Below are positions 2,189 through 64,000 of a DNA stretch of 64,000 nucleotides, in pieces. Source of the DNA: a virus; IMG/VR virus record IMGVR_UViG_3300033153_016044, positions 33,730-97,729 of that record; one strand, given 5' to 3'. Every line of letters begins with the position of its first letter. The first letter of the stretch is position 1. The position numbers were made by a program, and so were the translations under genes. Below the pieces are notes generated by a model. The model saw only the letters and a program-made list of their open reading frames with translations. It ran no database searches and had not been told where the DNA came from.

Positions 2189-4596
2189 TATCCGAAATCT
2201 AACCCTCCTCCATTTAAACTAGAATCAGAGAACCCAATATGTGAACCAAATCCTTTATCCACATTTACATTATGTCCGCTAATAAAACCAGCTTGTTGTT
2301 GTGGCAACACTCTGCCTCCACCATTGTTAACCATATAAGCTATAAGAGCTAACTCTTCTTTACTTATTTCACCAAACTTTCTTGTATATGTTTGAAGTGA
2401 ATAGCTAGTCTTAACTCCACCGTCACCAAAGCTTATACTAATAGAGTTTATATTTGAATTCTTTTCAAGAGAATCCCCAATGCTAAATTGAGGAAATCCT
2501 TCTACTTGAATGCTAGCAGAGAATGCCTCCTTCTGTAATGATGTAGCATTATCTACTTTTATCTGCATGGATTCTATCATTGCTCCTATACTTCCAAATT
2601 CCCATGGAGCAAATCCATCATCCTGTATAATTTGAACCTTACCCTGAGAATCAGCTCCAAGATTACTTGAGAACACAGGACCATATCTAATATTTCTAGA
2701 ACGTGTAGGTATATAGGCAAAGCTTGGCCCATAAGCAAAAGCGTGCACTCCAAAAAACGAAGAACCATAAAAAGCTATGTATCTACCATGAAGTTTTTCA
2801 TGAGCTTCTATCGTACCTATGCCTCTGCCGTCTGCGATTTCTAAAGCATCCGACATTAATTTATTTTTTAGGGGTGTCTTCTCAAAAACACCTCCAGGAA
2901 TAGTTACAACACCATCCTTATCTACCGTGCATGATACATACAGAGACGTTTTAACAGAACCAAATGGACTAGCAGATTCCTTATAAATATAACTAGCGGT
3001 ATCTTTAATCTCTAAAGTTACATCATTGGGGTCATATGCATTAACTAATTTTAATACCAGAATAGCCTCTCCGGCATTAATAATTCTATTGACAAACGTG
3101 GAACCATAAACAATAGAATTTCTAGCAAAAGATTGTTGATTACCAAATAGTTGTGTTAAATTCTCTAGCCCCAGAGAGAATGCACCTCCAGCAGCTTCTG
3201 AGGAAAATTCTACATAAGCTTTAGTTCTTCCATCGTTCTGCCTAAAATATTCATTAGGGTCATCGTTTCCCCCTACTACATCTCTAGTCCACGCAGATTG
3301 AATTACCTCATCTAATATTGTATCATGAACAAATCTTTTTCCATATGAAGATTTTGCATGTGCTTCAAGTTTTTTATATACAGCTCCGACCTCGGCCCGC
3401 TTTGCTATTTTTAGCTTAAGTAAAGCAGCAGCTCTTTTTGTATTAAAAGTAGGGACTTTATCTTTATCATTAGGCTCGTCAACATCATTCAAATCTGCAA
3501 TTAAACTTACTATGCCAGCTATATCATCATCTCCAAATCCAGGACCATATCTACTCATTCCAAAAGAACTTTCATTTGATTCTACTGTAGTTTTAGATTT
3601 TTCATTTCCTAACCACAGTTCCCACTGATGTTTTCCAGCTATTACTGCTATCATTTCATCTTCTGTCATTATATAATTATTAAATCCACCTTCAATAGAT
3701 AAGTCAATTGGCTCATTAGCCATACCTAATATTGCTACCTTAGTTAGATTCTCAAGTGGTGCACCCTGCAGGGCCATACAAGAAACTTCATTTCTAAGTT
3801 CTATCCCAGAGGTTGCAGTTATTACTCTCTCATCATGCTGGTCTAAGAAGCTTTGCAGGTCTATGTCTATATTATCAGTAGACCTATCAATTACTTTTAC
3901 AGTTACCTCTATGATGCCATCTGCTCTCTTCTCCGATTCAACAAACCAATCAAACGCATGTCTCTGTGACAAATCTTCTATTAGATTAGAAATGGGCGTT
4001 AGGTTTGTATTAACTCTGTGGTTGGGATTTACTATCGCTGCAACCTCGTCTAAATTAAATACATATCGCTCTCCAAATACATTGGCGATTTGTTGAGGAA
4101 TAGGAATTACTGCAGTTCCAAATAAAACATTATCCCCCTTTAGGGCGCTAACTATTCTTTCGAATGGCATACCAGATTGATTCCATCCAGATAAGTTAAT
4201 AAGACCTGCTCCATAAGGACCATATATATCAAGGACGGAACAGCCAGTATTATTTATTGTATCTATGATTGCCTGAGAGCCCGGAGCAAGAATCACAGGA
4301 ATAGATTTCATTATCTCTCTTGGGTCAGATACGGATACTCTAATTGTTCTTCCGGAAATATTAGTCACATCTATTTCATATCTAGTCAGCACACCAGAGA
4401 AGCTCCAGGAATCTCCCAGGGTTATTGTTTGAAAGGTTCCTACCTCCGGAAATTCAAATAATGCATCATCATCTTCTACGATAGTCACAGAAGCTGTACT
4501 TGGACTAGTAGAAAGACCTAGACTATTAGATATGTTTTTTATATATGAACCGAGGAACTTATTTGCTCCCCCACCACCTAAATCAGTTGCCGTCAT
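2188..4596 (-). CDS. putative baseplate hub/tail-tip protein
   Basis: 802 aa, beta-rich, lies downstream of the TMP; position-based call. Confidence 0.5.
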   Translation of the reverse strand: MTATDLGGGGANKFLGSYIKNISNSLGLSTSPSTASVTIVEDDDALFEFPEVGTFQTITLGDSWSFSGVLTRYEIDVTNISGRTIRVSVSDPREIMKSIPVILAPGSQAIIDTINNTGCSVLDIYGPYGAGLINLSGWNQSGMPFERIVSALKGDNVLFGTAVIPIPQQIANVFGERYVFNLDEVAAIVNPNHRVNTNLTPISNLIEDLSQRHAFDWFVESEKRADGIIEVTVKVIDRSTDNIDIDLQSFLDQHDERVITATSGIELRNEVSCMALQGAPLENLTKVAILGMANEPIDLSIEGGFNNYIMTEDEMIAVIAGKHQWELWLGNEKSKTTVESNESSFGMSRYGPGFGDDDIAGIVSLIADLNDVDEPNDKDKVPTFNTKRAAALLKLKIAKRAEVGAVYKKLEAHAKSSYGKRFVHDTILDEVIQSAWTRDVVGGNDDPNEYFRQNDGRTKAYVEFSSEAAGGAFSLGLENLTQLFGNQQSFARNSIVYGSTFVNRIINAGEAILVLKLVNAYDPNDVTLEIKDTASYIYKESASPFGSVKTSLYVSCTVDKDGVVTIPGGVFEKTPLKNKLMSDALEIADGRGIGTIEAHEKLHGRYIAFYGSSFFGVHAFAYGPSFAYIPTRSRNIRYGPVFSSNLGADSQGKVQIIQDDGFAPWEFGSIGAMIESMQIKVDNATSLQKEAFSASIQVEGFPQFSIGDSLEKNSNINSISISFGDGGVKTSYSLQTYTRKFGEISKEELALIAYMVNNGGGRVLPQQQAGFISGHNVNVDKGFGSHIGFSDSSLNGGGLDFG

Positions 4597-6600: not shown

Positions 6601-9600
6601 CTAATTAATAAAACCAGATGGTAATGTGATTGAAAGTAACGGACAAAGAGGGAAGTTGTGAGATGGACATGCAGAAGAAGAACTTTCGGCAACTATACTT
6701 CCGATTAATGTTCCCCAAATTTCAGAACTAGGAAGACCAACACCAGTTAAGTATCCATGAATACTTGTAGTAATAATTCCACTTACTCCGAATACATAAC
6801 CATGTATAGATGAAGAATTAAATCCCAACCCACTAGCATAACCATGAATACTACTTGGAATTTCATCAGAAGCATCGACAAAACCATGAATGGTCATATC
6901 GGCAGCTCCACTTAATACATACCCTTTAATAGTTGAGGTTGCAATAGGTGGCCGCTTAACATAGCCATGAATAGCTTGCGCGCTAATCTCACCCTTTAGA
7001 TATCCATGAAGAAAGTTAACACCAGGAACTACATTAGATGTAGATGGGTTACCCACTAGGCCACCACCAGAAGGAACAAGCCCCTCACTACCTAGATAAC
7101 CATATATACTAGAGTTGGGATAATTACCCAATAGATATCCATGAACAGATATCGACCCTGACCCAATAGGTGGCAATACATATCCATAAATAGCCTTTTG
7201 GTTTGGACCGAGCCCAAAGATTCCTCCATCCCAACCTTGAGTAAAGCCGTGTCTAAACTTACTAGTAAACTCTCCAGACTCACCAGCTATATAACCATGA
7301 ATAAGCTGAGCCCCAGTAAGGCCTTCTAGGTATCCATGAATATTATCTTGACTTGACATATCTCCGGAGCCAAAGCCTCCGATTAGGAAGCCATCGATTA
7401 CAGAACTAACACCAGTAGGGTCTACGGGAACATTACCAAATAAATAACTATGAACTTGAGAGGTTGTTAATTCATGTCCATGCAAAAACCCATGAATTAA
7501 ACCAGAGGCTTCTGTTCCAAGACCTACTAAATAACCATCTCTAAATGATTGTTGTGGTAGACCAGACGGAATATATCCATGAATAAATTCTGTAGCAATA
7601 CCAGAACTAATTACATATCCATTTATACTACTTATCTCGAACGGACTTCCACCAGTCAAATATCCATAGCGCTGATGTCTTGGTCCAAATTCAATATCTA
7701 CAGGGTCAAGACCGAATACACCATCAATCCAAGCAGCACCATAGGGATATAGAAGTCTGTCAGCAGGAATATCATAGACGCCCTTTGTGTATACCCACTT
7801 TAAAGTTTGAGCCCCTGCAAGACTAGTAGAAAAAGTTTCTCTTTCTCCAAGTTCAGGAATGTTTGAGTTAAAAGCATCTAGAGTATGCCAATGCATATCT
7901 CCATAAGTTTCTTGAAGAACATTATCTATAAAGAATTCAATCTTATCATCTACGTGAACATCCGAACGTATATAAAATCCAAACTCTCTACCAGCACTGC
8001 CGTCTGGTAATCTTTCATCTATATTGACATCAATATCTACTTCCAGAATAGCAGAATGTCCTGGTTGTATTCCTCCGCTCGGTACTATCCTTAGTGGACT
8101 ACCCAATCCAGAAGCATCTCCAATAGCCTCGCTTCTTATAGAAAATCCATCATCAGTTCCTCTTTGTGGAAATACAAATGACCAAATTCCACTCTGTACA
8201 GTTCCATCAAAATCAACTGGAAGAGGAGTAGATGGCAAGAAATTTGTTCTAGTGGCATTACCACTTGCTACAATTCCCCATTCAAAATCTCCAGATGTTC
8301 TCCAGCCTTCTGGTAGAGTCCCCTGTTCTTGTCTGAATGTTTGTTGTGTAGTTTGTAGTGGGCTTCTTACAATCTGTCTGTTATATGGGGGCGGGTCAGA
8401 GGTCGAGTTAGACCATGTTACAACTTCTGGATTAGTAGCTGCTGGACCAAATAATTTAATTTCATATACTCTTGAACTACTTTGTATAGAGTTAAAAAAT
8501 TGAAGTGTTACAAATTTTGCAGTAAATGGGTTAATGTTAAAAATTGGAACTAGCGATGCTACGTTTAAAGATTCTGTAACAGTCTGTGTTCCAGCCATAT
8601 ATTTTTCTAATGAACTATTTTGTGGAGGAAGCGAACTAATTGCACCAGATGGTATTGTAAATAATCTAACATGGTTTATTCCATCTAGTGTTCCCGATAC
8701 AGCTATGCCGGGAGCAGACGTTGTTCCATTTCTTTGTAGTACCTCTACTCTTTCTATAGTTCTAATCTTGTCTAATTCAAGAGTTAATGTATAGCCATCT
8801 CTGACTCTACCATAGGTAGTATTATCATCATCAAAAAGATTAGGAGATTCTTCATAATGAGATGTGAACTGTACGTTAGTATATGCAGCAATGCCTGTAA
8901 AGATTTCATTGGCCGTGCCGGACGTAAGAGTATAGTCAATGGTAAATTCTGATTCTTGCCACCTACCTAATGCGGGAGATTGTTCTACATCCCATACTGT
9001 TAAGATTCCACCAGAAGGATATGTTGAAACATGTCCCTGCGTAACTAGTAGTTCTTGCTTTGTGCCGCTGGCACCCGCGGGCTCTGTGGGATGCTTTAGT
9101 GCTTTAAATCCTCCCCAGAATAATGTATTGCTCCAGCCTCCAGTTTGAGATTGGCCCACAGATGCAGGATGTTTAAGACCCTTATCTTGGTCATCCATGG
9201 TAGGAAATACCCAGTTGCTTCCATCAAAGTCAGCCTTGAATCTTCCTATTGATTGTTTTCCCCATTCGTTTTTCTTTTGAAAATAGAATAAGAATTCTCC
9301 ATCATCATTAAAAGAGAAGTCACAATTAGTTCCTTCTCCTGGGAAGTTATGTCTTGTTACACCTTCTCCTGAAAAATTATTAGGACCTATACCATACATA
9401 TCGCCAGTGGGCACAATTCCAGATTGGATTAGTAATCCGCTTGTGCTACCATTAAGACTACCAGCTTTTGTTACCCAACTATTTTCTGTTCCATTTGCTA
9501 TATCTTTTACATTTATATATTCATCTGTATCTTCTGTCCAGTGATAAATACTCTGACCTACCCCTCCAATTCCAGAAGAGCATACAACGGCCATGCCGTG

Positions 9601-54325: not shown

Positions 54326-54518
54326 GCACTTCTCACGGCTTCTGTCTATGTAGAGTATAGATTTTAAGGCGTGTCTATTAAGGACTTAAGAAGAACGTAA
54401 AGTCAATGGCGGCCTAGTTATGCTTGAACATTATTACTTTGCTGATTATTTTTCTCTGGACCACCCCGGCGCTTCGCTAACTCCCGCAATCCCAGGGATT
54501 TGAAAAAGCCCCGGGGTC

Positions 54519-55500: not shown

Positions 55501-55607
55501 GCCGCTGTTCAAGCGGAGGTAGCACGCTAGTGTGGGTGCGCGAAGCGCACCATTACAGTCCGGCGGGACCTCCGCATCCTGGGAAGGTTTTACATTACTG
55601 TGACACT
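55501..55607 (+). repeat. structured intergenic element, copy A (GTTCAA-N10-CAC, hairpin, TCCGGCGGGAC) including a 44-bp direct repeat shared with copy B
   Basis: 55564-55607 equals 57457-57500 with 2 mismatches. Confidence 0.8.
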
Positions 55608-58733: not shown

Positions 58734-60227
58734 ATGCAAGGCAGCGAAGGCAAAGAGATTTTCTCGGTGAAGACACCGAACGATTACTGGCAAAAGGAGA
58801 TTGCCACTTATTACGATTGGCCCTACGCTTGGGGTCGCGAGATAGGGCAGAACTCCCTAGATGCTGGTGCTAAGAACATCAACATCACTCTGACTCCGGC
58901 AAAGGATATTCAACGAGACCCCGATAACGAGTGGAAGACAGATACGTGCTGGGTAGTGTGGGAGGACGATGGGTGTGGTATGGATAGGGACGACGGAGAA
59001 GGCAACCTAATCGTCTTTTCCAAGTTCCTCACCCTGGGCGCATCGCAGAAGAAGGATGGCGACACCGGGGGATTCGGGTGGGCAAAGAAGCTCATCTGCT
59101 TCGCGATGGTCGAGTGGCACATCAGGACCGGCACCCTTCATATCCACGGGGAGGGTGGTCAATACTGGACCGAAGACAATCTTGAGTACGTCGAGGGAAC
59201 GAAGATGCGGATTCGCGTTCCGGCAGCGACCTGGCGGATTCGGCGGAACATCGAGAAATGGCTCTGCTGGACCGATACCAAGGGCGCAACAGTGATGCTG
59301 GATGGTCGCGTCCTCAAAACCTTCGCCGATGTTGCAGTCAAGGGGACTCGCCCAATCCCCGGCGTCGATTGGGCCAAGATGACCGTGACTGAGGTCTCTG
59401 GTCAAAATATTATCATTCGGGCCAACGGCCAGATGATGAGCACGCTGAGCGGGAGCGATGACCAGAAGTACGTAGTGGTGATTGACGTGATTGGCAAGAG
59501 CACCGACCACTTCATGTCGAATCGCGACGGATTGAGGTCCAAGAGCAGAAACGAGATTCAAGGATTTCTCGACAGACTCTTCGCCAACCCCAACCGTATC
59601 TCCAAGCTCGACACTCCTATCTGCCACGATTACAGGGGTGGCAAGGGTGCGATTGAGATTGGGATTTGCGACGGTTCGGGCGCAGACCTCTCCTTCCTCC
59701 TCGAATCGGGAATCGACCTGGTCAAGATGTTGACTGAGCTATTCTCAAAGGAGCGCGGTTCCGCTGGGCACGATAGCTTCGACATCCACGTTCACAACGA
59801 GATGGAGGGTCACGAGATTCCCGAGCGATTCCTCCCCGGCACCTGGGACAAGAAGGCGATTAAGATGATGGCCGAGTGGTGCGCCCTCATCAAGTTCGTC
59901 GGAGAGGTCACCGGATACAACGGACCGATTACTCCGGGCTGGGTGTTCAGTCCAGGCACCACAGCGATGCATAAGCGCGGACACATTCTCCTCAATCCTC
60001 TCTACATAGATGACAAGACGTTTCAGGTTACTGACCGATTAGTCGGCACCGGACCCAGCTCCGATTGGAACTCGATGGTCACGTCTGTGGTCCACGAGTT
60101 TACCCACGCCCACGGCTATCACAACCATGACGTCCGATTCATTAGCGCGATGGGTATGTATTACGCCATGGTGATGGATAACGCCGAGGACCTCCAGGAA
60201 CTCCGCGATTCGTTCTACGGCTGCTAG
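58734..60227 (+). CDS. GHKL (Hsp90/MORC/MutL-like) ATPase fused to a C-terminal HExxH zinc-metallopeptidase-like domain
   Basis: REIGQNSLDA (N box), EDDGCGM (G1), GGFGWAK (G2), GTK; VHEFTHAHGYHNHD. Confidence 0.85.
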   Translation: MQGSEGKEIFSVKTPNDYWQKEIATYYDWPYAWGREIGQNSLDAGAKNINITLTPAKDIQRDPDNEWKTDTCWVVWEDDGCGMDRDDGEGNLIVFSKFLTLGASQKKDGDTGGFGWAKKLICFAMVEWHIRTGTLHIHGEGGQYWTEDNLEYVEGTKMRIRVPAATWRIRRNIEKWLCWTDTKGATVMLDGRVLKTFADVAVKGTRPIPGVDWAKMTVTEVSGQNIIIRANGQMMSTLSGSDDQKYVVVIDVIGKSTDHFMSNRDGLRSKSRNEIQGFLDRLFANPNRISKLDTPICHDYRGGKGAIEIGICDGSGADLSFLLESGIDLVKMLTELFSKERGSAGHDSFDIHVHNEMEGHEIPERFLPGTWDKKAIKMMAEWCALIKFVGEVTGYNGPITPGWVFSPGTTAMHKRGHILLNPLYIDDKTFQVTDRLVGTGPSSDWNSMVTSVVHEFTHAHGYHNHDVRFISAMGMYYAMVMDNAEDLQELRDSFYGC

Positions 60228-61323: not shown

Positions 61324-61514
61324 TGTTCCCTCGAATCGCCTCTCTCTCTTGCCGCATCGTCAACCTCCTGCCATACCCCGTATCGGAGTTCCTCGGCAGG
61401 CACGAAATCCACAACGAGAGGTGGGTTCGATACGGTGACGAGATTTACACCGAGGTCACTATCCTCGGCTTCCACGTCGCCCTGATTGGTAAGTATCACG
61501 AACTGAAGAAGTAG
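61323..61514 (+). CDS. 63-aa hypothetical protein
   Basis: TAATG coupling. Confidence 0.55.
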   Translation: MFPRIASLSCRIVNLLPYPVSEFLGRHEIHNERWVRYGDEIYTEVTILGFHVALIGKYHELKK

Positions 61515-61522
61515 CGGACCAC

Positions 61523-61558
61523 CCCGAGATGCGGTTGACCTGTTCAATCGTATCTCGG
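61523..61558 (+). other. 15-bp RNA hairpin (two G-U pairs) closing the early gene block
   Basis: CCGAGATGCGGTTGA-CCTGT-TCAATCGTATCTCGG. Confidence 0.65.
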
Positions 61559-61819
61559 CCGCACGCCCGATATGATAGTAAAAAACGGATTCCCAGTTCC
61601 TGTGAGATTCTGCTAACGCCTCTTGGATTGCATGTATCCTACAGAGCCACGCTCGATTGCTGCATATATGGATAGGAACCTCTCAGTGTATGGGGGGCTT
61701 TGTTACGTATATAAAGATGTTATGGAGATTATATGAGAAGAACCCCGTGGAAATCTCTTCTCTGTCCCAGGGTCGGTGTAAGCCAATGGATAACATCACT
61801 CCCTGGACTCCCTATGGAT

Positions 61820-61885
61820 GGGCCGTGTTCAACCAAAGGATACACGCGCAGATACCAGACAAGGCCCTGGTATCTCCGACGGGGC
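61820..61885 (+). repeat. structured intergenic element, copy D
   Basis: GTTCAA-N10-CAC, AGATACCAG..CTGGTATCT, TCCGACGGGGC. Confidence 0.65.
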
Positions 61886-62365
61886 GATACGATGGAACCC
61901 AGGAGATATATAAAGGACTTACAAGAAGATTTAATAAAGATTTCATGTAGAGCATTTGGGATTTCTGGGTGGGATGTGGTTGGATGGCATTAAATATTAA
62001 GCTAGGCACATCAGCTATGTAGAGAGATAGCAAATGAGACTTAACTCCTTATCTATCCGTAAAGTTCCCTTATATATCCCTAGGGACGAAGCTATAGTGG
62101 GGAGCCATCCTACCTTCTCTTTGTATAGGGGTTATCTCTATGGGATATGCTAGTAAACAAACCCCTTTCTCTATCCTATGTCACGGCGCGAACGGTGGCG
62201 CTCACGAGCCTATCTACCCCCTATCGGACACCTACATCATCCTAAGTCTAGCGATTAAACTACGCGCTCTCTGTGCGTCTGGTGCGTTTATATTTAACGG
62301 AGCCCTGATTTAATGGATAAATAGCCCAAAATCATAGGATTTATGCCCTCATCAAGCCAAATTCC

Positions 62366-62466
62366 CTGCCAAAATGGCAGATTTGACAGGCAAAACGGCC
62401 AAAACTGCCAAAATGGCAGGCCCAGGCGACGTAAACAAAGGAGTTACGCGCGGCACGGGGTTCGCT
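62366..62466 (+). promoter_or_regulatory. candidate sigma54 promoter (CGGCACG-GGGT-TCGCT) with two upstream CTGCCA-AAA-TGGCAG palindromes
   Basis: GG at 62452 and GC at 62464 give exact -24/-12 spacing; palindromes at 62366-62380 and 62405-62419. Confidence 0.6.
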
Positions 62467-62704
62467 CTAGGCAAGGCTCGGCCCGCCGGTACGTCCGCGC
62501 GGGTCGATGCGGCCCCCGCTATCGCGCGGGTCGCGCGGGACGGCTCGCGTATCTTCGCGAGATGTTCTTTCACAATTCGTATCGGCTGGCGCAAGGGACG
62601 GATGAAACCTTGCACAGTAGCGGGATTGCTATCTTCTTCGGTGTTTTTGCCGTGGTAGTGATTGCATGACGCGAGACGATATTTCGGCGAGGATTGATAC
62701 CATG

Positions 62705-63731
62705 GGGTTTTAATCCTACCTTCTTCTTCCCTTACGAGGGGATTAGATTGGCCTAGCCTAGTGCCAATGGTGCCGGATAACATTCGACTCGAAGATTGTA
62801 GCGTTTAGCGTAATCACTCCGGTCTAAACTTTGATGTGCGAACATCAGGACTGCTTTAGATACGGCTCCCGTCGGATGTCTGTGGCTGCGATTATTTGGT
62901 CAGTGTAAAACCTGATTGAGAATCGTAAGTGCAGATAGCTGGCGGAATCTGTTCTAGATGTGGACCTGATTAGTAGCCGCACGAGGGGGATAGACGATGG
63001 CTATGAATCAACATAGCTGAGATGACCTCTTATACCTGTAGGGGCGATTCAAACTGCATTCGATACGGTGATATTTGACAATTAGACGTTGCGTGCGTGA
63101 GGGATACAGCTGTAATCGCTGTGTCTTACACTCGATACGTACTTGCCAATTATATATCGACCCCGGAGACAAGTTAGGGATTTATTCCTAGCCTAGGTCC
63201 ACGATGGCAGTCGATGTATATGGTGTTGTGGTGACGAACACAGATTTAACTGTGCGGTCTAACTATTGTTGTCAGGATGGCAATAATCACAACACTAGGA
63301 TGTCTTAGACGGCATTGTAGCAGGGACGTTGAGATAGCGCTGACAGTTAGGGCAATAAGAACCTATCGTAACGATGTTGGGCAACCTACCCCGGATTTAT
63401 TTCTAGGATGACCCCGACAGGCGACGATAGCAGGCAATTGTGGCACAAATCCACGGGGTGAGTAAACATCCTAGCCTAGCTGCGTAACGTGGTGCTTTTT
63501 CATCAGAAAGCACAATCTGTAATGCGACATTAGCCCGCTCTATCGACAGTAGAGCCGGTGTCCATCATAGACAGATTGAGCCTGGGCGGAAGGGTCATTC
63601 ACCGATGACACGGGTGATGAAACTAGTACCAAGCCAAATCAGGACACTTTCTCGATTTACGAGAGACACCGGGTGGCGGTGATAGGTGAGACTCCTATGT
63701 GTCCAATCTTCTTAACCTTGAAAGGGTTAAT
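62705..63731 (+). ncRNA. candidate large (about 1 kb) highly structured non-coding RNA
   Basis: No track ORF in any frame between 62784 and 63733; more than 15 adjacent or nested stems rich in G-U pairs on the + strand; GNRA, T-loop-like and repeated (A)UUUA loops. Confidence 0.7.
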
Positions 63732-63733
63732 CC

Positions 63734-64000
63734 ATGCTTCAGATAACGTTTGTTAAGACGGGTAAAACCGTCGATTTCTCTCTTGCGGTTCCATCGCATG
63801 TTGTTTCTGACCAAATCAGGGAGAACAGGGAGCCGATGATGATTCATCTAGAGGATTGCGTCGTCGCCGTCGATTACGACTCCGGTTCGATTGCTGCACT
63901 CAATGTGCTTGAGGTCGATTGCGCCAAGAAAACGGGATTGAGTCCCGAACTAATCGAGAACATCTTGGCTCTGGCGATTAACGACAAAGAATCCTACGAC
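63734..64000 (+). CDS. partial hypothetical protein (MLQITFVKTGKTVDF...), runs off the window
   Basis: Open frame from ATG 63734 to the end; GAAAGGG RBS. Confidence 0.65.
   Translation, partial: MLQITFVKTGKTVDFSLAVPSHVVSDQIRENREPMMIHLEDCVVAVDYDSGSIAALNVLEVDCAKKTGLSPELIENILALAINDKESYD

Follow-up and report, generated by a model that had tools for sequence, protein, structure and literature searches.

Genomic setting

The 64-kb stretch of DNA that was analysed, referred to below as the window, is the right-hand part of a 97.7-kb IMG/VR record labelled as a provirus, and the end of the window is the end of the contig. The first 54.4 kb (window positions 1-54.4 kb) consist of minus-strand genes with a GC content of about 40%, and the last 10 kb consist of small plus-strand genes with a GC content of 50-54%, designated the early block. 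The switch in GC content and strand adjoins the RNR gene (54400-54460) and is conserved in a metagenome contig, L002 (positions 1-1760). Since L002 covers the junction, and since its RNR protein is 93% identical whereas its early-block proteins are only 37-65% identical, the GC-rich block was taken to be phage DNA that is evolving fast, much faster than the core genes, and the provirus label is probably a composition artefact. The CheckV-type completeness is 62% for the record of this phage and 91% for a 167-kb relative, which gives a phage size of roughly 160-180 kb. No tRNA genes were found in the window.

The stretch of interest (62700-63731, plus strand) is located in the early block, at the far end of this GC-rich and fast-evolving region, and contains all of the repeated words described below. 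Synteny with the two close relatives, L002 and L003, begins at 54.4 kb, and the contigs of these relatives stop just short of the stretch, at positions equivalent to about 62000 and 62100, respectively. A small ORF (63734-64000, plus strand) follows the stretch and is cut by the contig end; it has two relatives only, of 102-106 residues, among 1.84 billion representative proteins, and it had no Pfam or PHROG match. No terminator-like site was found between the 3' end of the stretch and this ORF, and no sigma-70-type promoter-like site was found upstream of the stretch on the plus strand.

Several other elements lie upstream. A box of the form TGGATGG-N2-TTAAATA-N6-TAGGCACATCA at 61978-62012 (plus strand), about 700 nt upstream of the stretch, is conserved in three related phages. 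Copies of the same TGGATGG-N2-TTAAATA type were seen in L003, at about 4400-4440, and in L002, where the end of the contig falls inside the box. The box may be the promoter for the candidate transcript. Just upstream of the stretch there are two identical 15-nt palindromes (CTGCCAAAATGGCAG; 62366-62380 and 62405-62419), 39 nt apart, followed by a sigma-54-like GGCACG-N4-TCGC element (62452-62466) and a GC-rich run of CGCGCGGG repeats. A 497-residue protein is encoded at 58734-60227 (plus strand). Its N-terminus resembles GHKL-type ATPases in sub-threshold Pfam matches and an HExxH...H pattern at residues 454-465 is invariant across 12 relatives, a combination that suggests an ATPase fused to a metalloprotease-like domain; a tblastn search of GenBank phages with this protein gave no match. 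None of the ORFs near the stretch matched an RNA-binding domain, and no partition or repressor gene was recognised among them.

A strand-specific fold in an ORF-free stretch

The plus strand of the stretch had an MFE of -352 kcal/mol, compared to -301 +/- 8.6 kcal/mol in shuffled sequences (z -5.9), while the z-score of the minus strand was -0.6. In 200-nt sliding windows, the plus strand was structured from about 62800 to about 63800. The longest stop-to-stop frame within 62700-63731 was 64 residues (table 11). When the stops were recoded, the longest frames inside the stretch were 130 residues (TAG=Q) and 102 residues (TGA=W), scattered over both strands. A recoded protein-coding gene was rejected, as there was no gene-length ORF under table 11, TAG=Q or TGA=W. 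A 143-residue minus-strand ORF that overlaps the first copy of the 10-mer described below has no relatives and is probably spurious. A replication origin was also considered and rejected; no match to the DnaA box TTATNCACA, with one mismatch allowed, was found beyond 60427, and there was no tandem iteron array.

A search of the whole window against Rfam 15 at gathering thresholds gave no match, including to GOLLD, ROOL, OLE, HEARO and raiA, and a search of 61500-64000 at E<=10 gave weak, chance-level matches only. The stretch 62700-63731 was taken to be, probably, the template of a structured non-coding RNA of about 1 kb or, alternatively, of a giant structured leader of the small downstream ORF.

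A 10-mer present in three copies

The first-pass annotation had reported that a 10-mer occurs three times in this stretch, and its coordinates proved to be exact. The 10-mer, CCTAGCCTAG, starts at 62752, 63187 and 63470, in all cases on the plus strand and within 730 nt, and no further exact copy is present in the 64-kb window or in the 97.7-kb contig. None of 2000 dinucleotide-shuffled versions of the stretch contained a triple 10-mer. Elsewhere in the contig, a 10-mer is present at least three times per kb at only five loci, all of which are inside long ORFs in the six-frame list and were consequently taken to be coding repeats. A literature match to the 10-mer was an arbitrary control oligonucleotide and was set aside.

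The 10-mer has the form C-CUAG-C-CUAG, a tandem of the self-complementary tetranucleotide CUAG, so that any two copies can pair. By a simple count, this form is common to only about 2.4e-4 of all 10-mers. The calculated duplex of two copies has 4+4 bp around a C-C mismatch and an energy of -7.0 kcal/mol, or -13.0 kcal/mol when the 3' G of the second copy is included. The density of CUAG is 10 per kb in the stretch compared to 0-4 per kb elsewhere in the early block. The CUAG-based words in the stretch comprise six CCUAG, three CUAGG and one CAUCCUAG, which are self-complementary and complementary to one another.

The three copies of the 10-mer (CCUAGCCUAG, plus strand), designated words 1, 2 and 3, were found in three different predicted structural contexts. 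Word 1 (62752-62761) can form the 10-nt loop of a hairpin with a perfect 6-bp stem (62747-52 / 62763-68), the pair probabilities of which are 0.32-0.87 in the ensemble; the isolated hairpin has a calculated energy of -5.8 kcal/mol with the loop open and -8.5 kcal/mol with an inner 3-bp CUA/UAG helix. The first half of word 2 (63187-63196) is the 3' strand of a hairpin capped by GAUUUA (hairpin 1, below), while its second CUAG is unpaired in an internal loop (probability unpaired 0.76-1.0 for 63193-96). Word 3 (63470-63479) is predicted to lie buried in a three-way junction, within two of its helices, and the 5' flank of the word makes CAUCCUAG (63467-74). A common fold of the three word modules was rejected because the predicted local structures differ.

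Predicted GAUUUA hairpin loops

The hexamer GATTTA occurs four times in the stretch, at 63179, 63243, 63394 and 63654, all on the plus strand. Some 6-mer was present four times in 970 of 2000 shuffles, so the count by itself is not significant. The placement of the hexamer was a different matter. The claim that it caps hairpins at all four sites agreed with the MFE structure, in which the loop bases had a probability of 0.94-1.0 of being unpaired, and in 96 folded shuffles no 6-mer was found on more than two predicted hairpin loops, compared to four for GATTTA.

Three of the predicted hairpins are robust; their stems, of 8, 5 and 7 bp, are unrelated in sequence. Hairpin 1 (63173-63192, plus strand) has the 8-bp stem and a UUUA loop (-8.1 kcal/mol when folded in isolation), hairpin 2 (63239-63254, plus strand) has the 5-bp stem and an AUUUAA loop (-5.3 kcal/mol), and hairpin 4 (63648-63666, plus strand) has the 7-bp stem and an AUUUA loop (-6.8 kcal/mol). 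Hairpin 3 (63393-63403, plus strand) is weak, with a stem of 3 bp. A GTTTA sequence at 62803, which had been put forward as a variant loop, was paired in the MFE structure (probability unpaired 0.15-0.6) and was not retained. No complementary partner for the GAUUUA loops stood out among the unpaired segments of the RNA.

Hairpin 4 is the first arm of a three-hairpin element at the 3' end of the stretch (63638-63700, plus strand), which is closed by GGACAC/GUGUCC. This element resembles the pemK RNA motif (RF02913) in that the alignment covers the 61-position model from end to end and takes in an AU-rich first loop. The assignment was rejected, as the score was 23.9 bits against a gathering threshold of 34.8 bits (E 0.17 in a 2.5-kb search) and the downstream gene, the ORF at 63734, is not pemK-like.

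Composite words and possible traces of duplication

An 8-mer, CTAGGATG, had been reported to occur twice, and both positions (63295 and 63403) were exact, but the repetition is without significance, since the count is at chance level and fifteen other 8-mers also occur twice. The first copy (CUAGGAUG, 63295-63302, plus strand) is paired in the MFE structure to 63221-23 and 62781-85; the second is at 63403-63410 (plus strand). The stretch as a whole contained 25 repeated 8-mer pairs compared to a median of 19 in natural 1-kb windows of the phage genome. A general excess of repeated short words was therefore discarded, as the number exceeds that of shuffled sequences yet is ordinary for natural 1-kb windows of this genome.

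A 14-nt composite, GGATTTATTYCTAG, that links the loop word to a CUAG word also occurs twice. The first copy, GGAUUUAUUCCUAG (63178-63191, plus strand), joins a GAUUUA-type loop word and a CUAG word, and the second, GGAUUUAUUUCUAG (63393-63406, plus strand), runs into CUAGGAUG. The sites at 63178 and 63393 were the only two zero-mismatch or close matches to the composite form GGATTTATT(C/T)CTAG in the window. In two of its four copies, the loop word is thus followed immediately by a CUAG word.

Around the three 10-mers, the flanking sequences have in common a G-rich run, an AU-rich run preceding the word and a ...UGG following it. They are only weakly alike: the similarity of modules S1 and S2 was reached by 4 of 300 shuffles and that of S1 and S3 by 14 of 300. 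A block, CGGUCUAA... (62820-62837, plus strand), and its partner (63255-63272) are located 68 nt after word 1 and word 2, respectively, and lie on the same +435 diagonal; the repeat families D5, D7 and D10 are all spaced by 435. Two further 8-mers, ACCCCGGA and AGTTAGGG, recur between 63160-63300 and 63345-63410. Outside the 10-11-nt core the identity drops sharply. A large internal duplication was rejected, since there was no significant long self-alignment and no long repeat unit was detectable. Flanks that are weakly alike around cores that have been kept suggest, at the level of sequence, an old duplication of a module.

Possible pairing between the words

The sequence CAUCCUAG (63467-63474) is the complement of CTAGGATG, and the first-pass annotation had proposed that it could pair with either copy of the 8-mer to give alternative long-range helices. 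The segments are complementary as proposed, but nearest-neighbour modelling gives little weight to the alternative helices. The ensemble probability was 0.35% for the pairing of 63467-74 with 63403-10 and approximately 0 for the pairing with 63295-302. Forcing CAUCCUAG onto a copy of CUAGGAUG cost +3.5 kcal/mol for the copy at 63403 and +8.6 kcal/mol for the copy at 63295, only the first of which is within the error of the model. Forced intramolecular pairing of the words with one another, as single helices or duplexes, cost +8 to +18 kcal/mol. Two further arrangements were rejected, a three-strand CUAG hub at +33 kcal/mol and, in module 2, a parallel helix of GUCUAA with UUAGAC at +24 kcal/mol.

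Single-sequence thermodynamics thus argues against the words forming ordinary nested helices with each other. It neither establishes nor excludes the use of the words in tertiary or intermolecular contacts. Self-assembly would be compatible with the palindromic word and with the predicted exposure of word 1 as the 10-nt loop of a hairpin with a 6-bp stem.

Search for homologues

No homologue of the RNA stretch was found by blastn against GenBank phages, by searching viral contigs for the exact word patterns, or by using the conserved promoter-like box as a pattern. The neighbouring genes were also used as a means of reaching related loci. The downstream ORF, alone and as an alignment, led to no RNA homologue in viral contigs, and the 497-residue protein, alone and as an alignment, reached none in viral and metagenome contigs. 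None was found by way of RNR, either in GTDB genomes or in the RNR relatives G001-G005, the whole records of which were searched with the RNA, or in the early block of G003. Whole-record searches of eight related phage records gave the same result, as did blastn and nhmmer searches of the retrieved loci up to L004-L013 and blastn searches of the later loci. The terminase gave 26% identity at best in a tblastn search of GenBank phages.

Three apparent leads were dismissed. A cluster of one-mismatch words in the distant phage G008 is a repeated intergenic palindrome and not a homologue of the RNA. It consists of GCTAGGCT-N4-AGCCTAGC together with a second GC hairpin (L025 2570-2595 and 3227-3250; G008:C1), is built on an AGCCTAG core as in the 10-mer and is located about 35 nt before the starts of minus-strand genes. 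It is an operator-like or 5'-UTR hairpin. Four genome matches to two spaced words are tandem or dispersed bacterial repeats that have no similarity to the RNA. Tandem arrays were seen in a Persicirhabdus genome (141-nt period; L028 14-713) and a Chlorobiota MAG (79-nt period; L029 1-317 and 3161-3438); their units have CCTAGCCTAGGG inside hairpins with similar flanks and no Rfam match, and the arrays may constitute an undescribed repeat family. The third lead, an ORF-free gap of 0.9 kb in L011, was unstructured and iteron-like. It contains four tandem 24-nt iteron-like repeats (at about 7900-8020), 1.4 kb upstream of a distant homologue of the 497-residue protein, and is a candidate replication origin.

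Comparison with known RNAs

Recent work has shown that large structured phage RNAs without a known function, among them GOLLD and ROOL, assemble into RNA-only cages by means of short kissing words. Cryo-EM of ROOL (RF03087), GOLLD (RF01998) and OLE (RF01071) is described in PMC12286853, where palindromic tetranucleotides in OLE L9.3 and GOLLD L21a form symmetric intermolecular kissing loops. The present stretch, like ROOL and GOLLD, which occur in phage and prophage settings, is long, free of ORFs and heavily structured, and, like OLE and GOLLD, it has short palindromic words that by analogy could make symmetric RNA-RNA contacts. Unlike these three RNAs, it has no match to a covariance model even at E<=10, and its window has no tRNA genes. 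Only one of the three words is predicted to be in a hairpin loop, in contrast to the kissing loops of GOLLD and OLE. As to self-assembly of the ROOL and GOLLD type, what was found is a computed pairing potential of -7 to -13 kcal/mol for word-word duplexes and the placement of word 1 in a 10-nt loop. The stretch is regarded as a new, orphan representative of the large structured phage RNAs, a class that is growing.

The same words invite comparison with two other types of RNA. In RNA genomes and plasmid antisense RNAs, kissing-loop formation is initiated at palindromic dimerisation loops. Word 1 is similar to these loops in that it is self-complementary and is predicted to occupy a hairpin loop of roughly 10 nt, but it differs in that its two 4-bp halves are split by a C-C mismatch, that there are three copies per molecule and that the arrangement is a predicted one. 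The GAUUUA loops resemble CsrB, RsmY and RsmZ sponges in that a single short word recurs in several hairpin loops whose stems are unrelated. The word is GAUUUA rather than GGA, however, and there are four copies in 1 kb instead of about one per 15-25 nt. The trinucleotide GGA occurs 17 times in the stretch, compared to 18.6 expected; two copies are fully unpaired and three are ANGGA. The CsrB-like logic suggested in the first-pass annotation does not therefore apply in its strict sense, and a CsrB-type sponge in that sense is excluded because GGA is not enriched.

Interpretation of the reiterated words

The reiteration of the words is non-random and fits some shared function. The exact 10-11-nt core between flanks that have drifted, the tandem palindrome and the presence of one loop word on unrelated stems point to selection acting on the words. 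The best reading, which we put forward tentatively, is that they serve as RNA-RNA contacts or docking sites, repeated along a new large phage RNA. A small module, comprising a G-rich arm, an AU-rich GAUUUA-type loop and CCUAG, would probably have been duplicated several times, after which the flanks would have drifted and the cores been kept. The CUAG words would work by RNA-RNA pairing, through either tertiary or alternative helices in one molecule or symmetric contacts between molecules, and the (G)AUUUA loops on their unrelated stems would serve as docking points for one common partner.

This reading is supported by the strand-specific structure (z -5.9 vs -0.6), by the lack of an ORF under three genetic codes, and by the occurrence of the triple 10-mer in an ORF-free stretch when the other five such loci are in long ORFs. 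Further support comes from the palindromic form of the 10-mer, the CUAG density, the predicted exposure of word 1 and of the second CUAG of word 2, the word shared by four loops, the two copies of the composite, and the weak similarity of the flanks together with the second block on the +435 diagonal. The symmetric kissing loops of OLE and GOLLD provide a precedent (PMC12286853). Counted against it are the lack of a homologue, the unfavourable energies of the intramolecular word pairings, the differing contexts of the three copies with word 3 buried, the failure of any loop partner to stand out, the chance-level count of GATTTA and the fact that natural windows are rich in repeated short words. 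In a more specific form, which is unlikely, the stretch would encode a new self-assembling or multivalent large phage RNA, in which the CUAG words act as bridges, either symmetric between molecules or switchable within one, and the AUUUA loops as sites for docking. If this were true, the product would be an RNA-only oligomer or an RNP scaffold, analogous to ROOL and GOLLD but unrelated to them in sequence.

A partner that is a protein rather than RNA was weighed as well. Both word families could be bound by one or two RNA-binding proteins, of phage or host origin, that recognise specific sequences, the tandem CCUAG-CCUAG being read by a dimer and the AUUUA loops serving as hairpin-loop sites, so that the RNA would act as a multivalent RNP scaffold or sponge that titrates or organises the protein. 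Identical loops on unrelated stems are in favour of such a scaffold, repetition of a motif in multiple loops is how CsrB/RsmZ-type RNAs are known to be built, and an exact 10-mer in three structural contexts fits a sequence read-out better than a purely structural role. The idea is nevertheless doubtful, since the neighbouring ORFs include no candidate for the protein, four loops and three words per kb are few, the lack of GGA enrichment means that the RNA is not a CsrA sponge, and protein binding leaves the tandem palindrome unexplained. The words could instead be relics, the slowest-diverging parts of paralogous hairpins or junctions that have neither a common ligand nor contact with each other. 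The weakly alike 10-mer flanks and the second block on the +435 diagonal, the recurrence of the composite 14-mer and the two further 8-mers, and the origin of all other triple 10-mers in the contig from internal repeats are what such relics would leave. This is quite unlikely, however, as the identity falls sharply beyond the core, no long repeat unit exists and, because the local structures of the three copies differ, there would be no common structural reason for their exact retention.

Two explanations dispense with a role for the words in RNA. CTAG-N-CTAG is a 9-bp palindrome, a form typical of the sites of dimeric DNA-binding proteins, and the three copies could be bound as DNA by such a protein in an operator, partition or packaging site, the RNA fold being secondary or irrelevant to the words. 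A distant phage that carries a homologue of the 497-residue protein has repeated intergenic palindromes on AGCCTAG half-sites, and the stretch is near the contig end, with related contigs breaking just upstream. DNA sites were considered improbable, given that the strong strand asymmetry of the folding argues for RNA, that all copies point the same way and form part of RNA helices and loops, that neither DnaA boxes, an iteron array nor a recognised partition or repressor gene is nearby, and that the GAUUUA loops would be left unexplained. Lastly, the stretch could be a non-coding spacer without function in which chance words and predicted hairpins were noticed post hoc. A single sequence was indeed read post hoc, several of the listed words are individually at chance level, and the RNA has no relatives in any collection searched, yet the shuffle tests (0 of 2000 and 0 of 96) and a fold z-score of -5.9 on one strand only make chance very improbable.

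The reading of the words as contact or docking sites remains the one that is preferred. An unrelated 1-kb phage RNA with a tandem palindrome in three copies and a loop word in four would have simple, mutable handles for testing self-assembly or multivalent binding. Coming from a single orphan sequence, the value of this proposal is that of a well-defined hypothesis, not of a result.

Possible pairing with early transcripts

Four TCCGACGGGA-type cores are present in the early block on the plus strand, at 55559, 57452, 58543 and 61875, and the exact complement of this core is located inside the large RNA at 62867-62876 (minus strand). Five matches were found at no more than one mismatch, a number reached by none of 100 shuffles. 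From this complementarity, the candidate RNA could base-pair with four early transcripts.
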